Assembly: GCA_025454445.1 (NCBI GenBank)
Contig: JALOOK010000018.1
Span: forward strand, 1-16,558
Direction: 5' to 3'
From: Oscillatoria sp. Prado101
GTDB lineage: Bacteria; Cyanobacteriota; Cyanobacteriia; Cyanobacteriales; Oscillatoriaceae
Length of the DNA stretch: 16,558 bases
The notes beneath the pieces were generated by a model. That model made no database searches. It saw only the letters and a program-made list of their open reading frames with translations, and was not told the DNA's origin. Within the stretch, counting starts at the first letter, position 1. Each line of letters opens with the position of its first letter. The position numbers were made by a program, and so were the translations under genes. Positions 8,500-8,831 of this stretch are shown here, in pieces.

Positions 8500-8831
8500 A
8501 GTAATTCAGCAATTCTTGCGCCGATAGTACAGGCAAAATAAAGCCTTCGTGCTTAGCTGGCGTGCTTCCTGAGCTAAGTCAGTTATTTGCTTACAGTTCC
8601 AAGGTTATACCCAGACCGGGAAATATCCTATAAAAAAAAACTGAAAAAAAAAAGTGATTTTTATTACAAGCAAATTCCCATAAGCACATGTCGTTTTTGT
8701 TGATTATTGAGTAGGCAGTGGGCCTTTGGCCGCATACTTTTGGCGAATTCAGGGCGGGGAGCTGTCGAGTGCGAGATAAATTGGGGAGCATCCCACTTTT
8801 GCATTATCAGCGGGGGAGCCTTTTGTACAGA

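Follow-up and report, generated by a model that had tools for sequence, protein, structure and literature searches.

A 17-nt sequence repeated upstream of the encapsulin and major vault protein genes of Oscillatoria is very probably the terminal inverted repeat core of a MITE family with ISKra4-type ends

Introduction

Small intergenic repeats that are bounded by terminal inverted repeats (TIRs) and lie 5′ of genes, such as the Correia elements of Neisseria and the ERIC/IRU sequences of enterobacteria, can carry promoters or RNA hairpins that affect neighbouring genes. Among autonomous elements, insertion sequences (ISs) of the prokaryotic Mutator-like superfamily have inverted repeats of 18–39 bp with a conserved terminal C and are flanked by direct repeats of 8–9 bp (Guerillot et al. 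2014, PMC3942029). The ISKra4 family (p-MULT4) is described there with its ISAzba1, ISMich2 and ISKra4 groups: the ISMich2 group has a two-ORF transposase with a −1 frame change, and 13 ISs of the ISKra4 group with nearly symmetrical inverted repeats insert 13–17 bp upstream of sigma-A promoters (PMC3942029). Such promoter-targeted insertion is a trait of a subset of the ISKra4 group and does not define the whole family.

Here we analyse a sequence that is repeated upstream of two shell-protein genes in Oscillatoria and compare it with these systems; "the window" denotes the whole stretch of DNA that was analysed, 16,558 nt in length. The repeat belongs to elements that, like bacterial MITEs, are short and non-coding, have imperfect 22-nt TIRs and target-site duplications of 8–9 bp, and are dispersed between genes. 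Further MITE-like features are a fold into a long hairpin, ends shared with full-length ISs of other cyanobacteria, nesting, and presence or absence between relatives. Unlike typical bacterial MITEs, they have a low copy number, with roughly 4–10 loci per genome by a strict search pattern. They resemble the ISKra4 family (PMC3942029) in starting with GGG (the terminal C on the other strand), in the 22-nt inverted repeat and in the 8–9-bp direct repeats, and full-length elements with the same TIR encode transposases that match the NCBIfam model NF033572. Unlike members of that family, the elements in the window encode no transposase, and unlike the ISKra4-group subset, they show no detectable promoter-targeted insertion. 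By analogy with the Correia and ERIC/IRU repeats, to which they are unrelated in sequence, the copies in the window could affect the expression of their neighbours.

Results

The exact 17-mer GGAGCATCCCACTTTTG occurs on the plus strand of the window at 8785–8801 and at 12084–12100, 286 nt upstream of the start codon of a family-2B encapsulin gene and 192 nt upstream of that of a major vault protein (MVP) gene, respectively (Table 1). The sequence-only reading of this DNA had reported the repeat, in the same orientation upstream of both shell-protein genes, and had named the genes as encapsulin and MVP; both the exact copies and the gene assignments proved right. The inverted partial copy that it had listed, GGATGCTCC, is part of a third copy on the minus strand, at 12448–12464, with three mismatches to the 17-mer. 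Its judgement that a chance match was very unlikely was upheld as well: when up to three mismatches were allowed, 0.04 matches were expected by chance, and none of 200 dinucleotide-preserving shuffles contained three or more. The similarity extends past the 17-mer, with 20 of 21 bases shared between 8785–8805 and 12084–12104. Downstream of the encapsulin gene lie genes for cysteine desulfurase, serine acetyltransferase and sulfur transport. An exact look-up of the MVP protein returned no match and that of the encapsulin returned contigs of the same strain only; divergent relatives were drawn from a one-genome-per-species scan and from homologues.

The MVP gene lies directly upstream of the family-2B encapsulin/cysteine desulfurase/serine acetyltransferase/sulfur-transport operon (window 5148–11892, minus strand), and the order methyltransferase–CbiJ–pentapeptide–MVP–encapsulin is kept in O. 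princeps RMCB-10 (L011; L numbers designate the stretches compared) and in L102 but not in Floridanema.

Table 1 Features of the window discussed in the text
Feature	Coordinates	Strand	Basis or remark
Family-2B encapsulin (cNMP_binding + SrpI-like)	ORF 7054–8499	−	
Left TIR of encapsulin-upstream copy, GGGAGCATCCCACTTTTGCATT, holds first 17-mer	8784–8805	+	21/22 against family TIR consensus
Body of degenerate MITE copy	8784–8973	+	Left TIR, internal GC hairpin, then TTTGTA...GCGCGATTTATCG segment
Major vault protein (MVP)	ORF 9226–11892	−	
Left 8-bp target-site duplication, TCCCCGCC	12075–12082	.	Read from sequence; identical to 12466–12473
End-A TIR, AGGAGCATCCCACTTTTGTATT, holds second 17-mer	12083–12104	+	Matches element ends elsewhere
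Complete composite MITE, 383 nt: end A, nested second MITE, end B	12083–12465	+	TIRs, target-site duplication and profile
Nested second MITE, 32-nt inverted repeat GCTGTTGGCGAATCAATGGCGGGTTAGACCCC / GGGGTAAAACCCCCCATTAATTCGCCAACAGC	12108–12414	.	Repeat finder
Inner hairpin repeat of nested MITE	12199–12270		
End-B TIR, GGGAGCATCCGGTTTTTGCATT on minus strand, holds the inverted partial copy	12444–12465	−	
Right 8-bp target-site duplication, TCCCCGCC	12466–12473	.	Read from sequence

We scanned one genome per species with the pattern GGAGCATCCNNYTTTTGYATT, which returned 56 stretches. About 23 matches fell in three Oscillatoria assemblies (10 in O. princeps RMCB-10, 7 in Oscillatoria sp. PCC 10802 and 6 in the MAG CAZJNL01), many of them as plus/minus pairs 130–540 nt apart; the same-species metagenome Ga0114941 contained at least seven loci. 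Matches to the degenerate pattern in Arsenophonus and Flavobacteriaceae were not accepted as members, since their flanks are conserved on both sides and they lack a GGG terminus; we took them as unrelated conserved sequence or chance.

Comparison of more than 25 copies from the three Oscillatoria genomes showed that homology starts exactly at (G)GGAGCATCC, at the bases GGGAGC, and that the flanks outside this point are unrelated. The family thus delimited has imperfect 22-nt TIRs, GGGAGCATCCCACTTTTGTATT and GGGAGCATCCCGTTTTTGCATT, and two types of end, A (GGGAGCATCCCACTTTTGTATTCCCGCTTTCCG...) and B (GGGAGCATCCCGTTTTTGCATTGGCAAGTGGGCC...). Complete copies are non-coding and 149–564 nt long; six short ones (151–190 nt) align from end to end, and the long forms, that of the window included, enclose a second MITE with the TIR GCTGTTGGCGAAT.... 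Perfect 8-bp target-site duplications flank the element in the window and those at L026, L031, L033, L046 and L060; elsewhere the duplications match at 7 of 8 positions (L051, 8 bp), 8 of 9 (L020 and L022, 9 bp) or 9 of 9 (L071), and at L052 none was found. The other copies are all intergenic, their neighbours being genes for a HEAT/PBS-lyase protein, an ABC transporter, SerRS, GidA, LigA, CTP synthase, a GHL10/SLH protein and others; the genes on either side point the same way for about 12 copies and converge for three. The end nearest to a 5′-facing gene was A or B in five versus four cases.

The family also differs between closely related strains. At window position 3747–3779, a segment of ~114 nt that begins with the TIR variant GAGAGCATCCCATTTTTGTAAT is present in L001 (14754–14900) and L089 (1–89), both more than 99% identical to the window, and is missing from the window itself and from L002. 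No second TIR was present in the segment, and a 33-nt duplication from the 3′ end of the SAT gene borders it; complete members of the GAGAGCATCCCATTTTTGTAAT subfamily have 8–9-bp duplications (L060 and L071). Polymorphism of a truncated TIR-bearing element between strains of more than 99% identity is evidence of recent activity. Searches of the literature, the supplements of PMC3942029 included, retrieved no published description of this MITE family or of its TIR sequence.

Full-length ISs in other cyanobacteria share the family ends, the exact 17-mer among them. Two such elements in Crocosphaera, at L014 (1612–3421, 1810 nt) and L059 (2203–3960, 1758 nt, target-site duplication CAAAAAGA), encode a transposase of 317 amino acids that scores 253.9 bits against NF033572 'ISKra4 family transposase' (cut-off 205). 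A 1178-nt IS in marine metagenome contigs (L066–L068) carries the exact 17-mer at both ends and an ISKra4-like transposase split into two overlapping frames; the ORFs of L067 match NF033572 at model positions 124–267 (47.5 bits) and 269–419 (155.3 bits). In the split of their transposase into two overlapping frames, these 1.18-kb relatives resemble the ISMich2 group, but by our own reading of the coordinates the frame shifts by +1 rather than −1 in L067. Four copies of a 1182-nt IS on a single 2.09-Mb contig (L096–L099) have the exact 17-mer in the left end and perfect 8-bp duplications (GTTTAAGC, AGCGCTGT and CTATCAAC), and two 143-nt MITEs adjoin this IS; a 9-bp duplication was found at L095. 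An autonomous ISKra4-family element with this TIR was absent from the Oscillatoria stretches examined, the full-length relatives coming from other cyanobacteria, and tblastn searches of the window and the Oscillatoria loci gave no match to a related transposase.

Upstream of the MVP gene, the 17-mer and its inverted copy belong together. The repeat finder returned nested inverted repeats, 12084–12104/12444–12464 outside and 12108–12139/12383–12414 inside, and when folded as a single strand, 12075–12473 forms one long hairpin that pairs both ends (−85 kcal/mol, z = −7.9). Since a perfect direct repeat of TCCCCGCC lies just outside the paired ends, the two copies on the MVP side are the two termini of one 383-nt element. 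Both termini are matched by an nhmmer profile built from the six short family copies (12084–12115, E = 2.7e-6; 12418–12465, E = 7e-11). The 27-mer 12084–12110 recurs without a mismatch at element ends in L020, L022, L024, L026 and L051, and the 48 bases 12418–12465 are 85–96% identical to end B in L015, L020, L045, L051 and L052, with longer end-B matches, from 12390 or 12402, in L022, L026 and L033. Two same-species contigs, L001 and L090, also carry the element, which is absent from O. princeps RMCB-10 (L011) and from L102.

Nesting of a MITE with the 32-nt TIR GCTGTTGGCGAATCAATGGCGGGTTAGACCCC in the first MITE was also observed in L022, L023, L024 and L033. Single ends of the nested type occur at window 8740–8760 and in an insertion downstream of MVP in L011 and L035. 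Across the window, an Rfam search (E ≤ 1) gave only sub-threshold miRNA-type matches, at 12200–12269 and 4933–5061, which we dismissed as spurious matches to hairpin repeats; neither 17-mer was hit.

The encapsulin-upstream copy is degenerate. With the same profile, 8784–8959 aligned to model positions 1–115 (envelope to 8973), and this internal family homology is weak (E = 1e-4); it has no recognisable target duplication or right TIR, no partner for the left TIR being found within seven mismatches. The left TIR itself is unchanged at the orthologous site of L011, of L035 (MAG CAZJNL01) and of the same-species contig L089, whereas base 8783, just outside the TIR, already varies between genomes. 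The copy is absent from L101 and L102. Since L011, L035 and L089 all carry it in the same place, the insertion is an old one that predates these lineages.

Discussion

We consider it very likely that the 17-mer is the core of the 22-nt TIR of a non-autonomous MITE family derived from ISKra4-family (p-MULT4) ISs, and that members of this family inserted independently upstream of the encapsulin and MVP genes. The sequence-only reading had offered, as its second possibility, insertions of one small repeat element upstream of each gene, with the 17-mer as its conserved end, and the TIRs, the target duplication and the IS relatives bear this out. In the process that we envisage, the GGGAGCATCCC...TTTTG.ATT ends would serve as recognition sites for an ISKra4-family transposase acting in trans, which would cut out or copy the element and insert it by a staggered cut of 8–9 bp; such a cut would produce the observed target duplications, the transposition step being modelled on that of the family. 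By analogy with the full-length relatives, we infer a mobilising transposase for the Oscillatoria lineage. Two independent insertions would then happen to have fallen upstream of the encapsulin and MVP genes: an older one (8784–~8973), shared with sister species, that would have lost its right end, and a younger, complete one of 383 nt (12083–12465) that would later have received the second MITE. On this account, the identity of the 17-mers would reflect common descent of the ends together with the requirements of the transposase, and not a shared function of the genes.

The repeat gives no evidence for co-regulation of the vault-like and encapsulin genes, and a tempting false lead is removed. 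In its place stands a low-copy family of MITEs in Oscillatoria that has ISKra4-type ends and apparently has not been described before. It shows nesting and strain-level polymorphism, and it can help in annotating genomes and in telling strains apart. The one feature of more general interest is the MITE-bounded block upstream of the encapsulin operon, which is conserved to an unusual degree. This conservation counts against our account, since 8784–9050 has changed less than would be expected of a relic decaying neutrally.

Domestication of the older copy would be compatible with a MITE origin: 8784–~9050 might now act for the encapsulin/cysteine-desulfurase operon as its promoter or 5′ leader, or for the MVP gene as its terminator. 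The block 8784–9050 is 96% identical to L011 and L035, compared with 83–84% in the adjacent 8500–8783 and 93–94% in the coding sequences for encapsulin and MVP, and the level of conservation changes precisely at the tip of the TIR. Within the block, on the strand of the genes, there is also a sigma-70-like TTGACG-17-TATATA (8914–8886), whose TTGACG is kept in L011 and L035. On the other hand, our promoter scan did not flag this site, and the consensus promoter and terminator sites that it detected over 8400–12750 were no commoner than in shuffled sequences. A small hairpin followed by a T-run was flagged on the plus strand over the encapsulin-upstream copy, and we regard it as a by-product of the TIR sequence. 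Moreover, L101, whose encapsulin is 92% identical at the amino acid level, and L102 retain the operon without any of the block, and the conservation was seen in only three closely related sequences, in which recombination or the short sample could equally lower the divergence. We therefore judge domestication in this broad sense to be unlikely, and its narrower form, in which the block was co-opted by the family-2B encapsulin sulfur operon for its promoter or leader, to be a little less likely again. If co-option had occurred, a mobile element would have altered how a nanocompartment operon is expressed in this lineage of Oscillatoria, and the younger MVP-upstream copy may be starting on the same path.

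The region next to this block varies in its own right. L011 (~5000–5650) and L035 (~2780–3400) contain, between the MVP stop codon and the encapsulin-upstream block, an extra ~520 nt with further repeat ends that is missing from the window. The spacer between MVP and encapsulin is a hotspot at which repeats are gained and lost.

A different account of why both copies lie in 5′ intergenic regions is that the transposase targets sigma-A promoters, as do the 13 ISKra4-group ISs that insert 13–17 bp upstream of them (PMC3942029). Among the flanks of 69 junctions, we found four sigma-70-like sites, with no clustering at any distance, although this test has low power, as the set is small, the loose selection pattern may admit chance matches, and a −35 box is often missing from cyanobacterial promoters. 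Convergent genes enclose three of the copies, and the MVP-upstream element is ~60–70 nt from the nearest promoter-like sequence. Preferential insertion at promoters is thus very unlikely to explain the positions of the two copies in the window.

Still less probable is the first suggestion of the sequence-only reading, namely that the encapsulin operon and the MVP gene are coupled in expression by the 17-mer as a shared cis-regulatory element or sRNA seed; among such sites we considered a transcription-factor operator and an sRNA target. Both copies do lie in 5′ intergenic regions in the same orientation, and the encapsulin-side copy is perfectly conserved in three close relatives. The orthologous loci do not bear this suggestion out. 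The alignment of O. princeps RMCB-10 (L011) to the window covers the MVP gene and a further 147 nt on its upstream side; homology ends at 12039 and restarts at ~12691, and the intervening ~650 nt (12040–12690), which include the MITE, are replaced by ~150 unrelated bases. From this alignment, neither a clean empty site nor a target-site duplication for the MVP-upstream copy was recovered. L102, whose encapsulin is 82% identical in protein sequence, has the same gene order and keeps the 147 nt upstream of MVP (86%), and it lacks both copies, as does L101. A search for the 22-mer with up to six mismatches found none in L101–L105, including 8 kb of the syntenic L102; the motif is absent from L101, for which 818 nt of upstream sequence were available, and from Floridanema (L104). 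Because conservation upstream of MVP breaks off at 12039, still 44 nt short of the element, in L011 and L102 alike, the MVP promoter likely lies between the element and the gene.

The distribution of the motif elsewhere points in the same direction. It occurs beside unrelated genes in both orientations, some of them convergent, at varying distances, and without exception it forms the outermost end of an element that has target duplications on either side. Given the 5:4 split in orientation and the copies between convergent genes, the common orientation of the two copies in the window carries little weight. The motif lacks the conservation and the gene specificity of an operator; it is the terminus of a mobile element that lies near unrelated genes and is missing from some orthologous loci. 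As grounds for abandoning its regulatory suggestion, the sequence-only reading had named a generic dispersed repeat with hundreds of copies genome-wide and no positional bias. The copy number given by the strict pattern is far lower than that, but the TIRs, the target duplication and the IS relatives establish the nature of the element all the same.

That the 17-mer repeat is a chance match has nothing in its favour except the small number of copies in the window, and it has a negligible probability in view of the shuffling result above and of the recurrence of the 21-nt pattern 6–10 times in each of three related Oscillatoria assemblies, where we estimate that ~2e-4 matches would be expected per 7-Mb genome.

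The window contains several other repeats. Two tandem arrays, at 118–245 (45-nt units) and 9036–9202 (~42-nt units), share the common core GTAGGGTGGGGAACGC.ACAGCG.AACC; each lies just downstream of the 3′ end of a gene, and their copy number varies between the window and L011 or L035. A perfect 33-nt palindrome at 3214–3246 (AGAAACCCGGTTTCTT A AAGAAACCGGGTTTCT) is a dispersed repeat found at many Oscillatoria loci, including L020, L023, L069, L071, L093 and L102. Finally, G-rich hairpin repeats (GGGAGAGGGG..GGGGTGAGGGG) at 4907–5118, between the SAT and cysteine-desulfurase genes, are 91–96% identical to segments in L022, L051 and L060 and resemble the interior of the 'CCCCTCACCCCCAACCCCTCTCCCAC' MITE subfamily.
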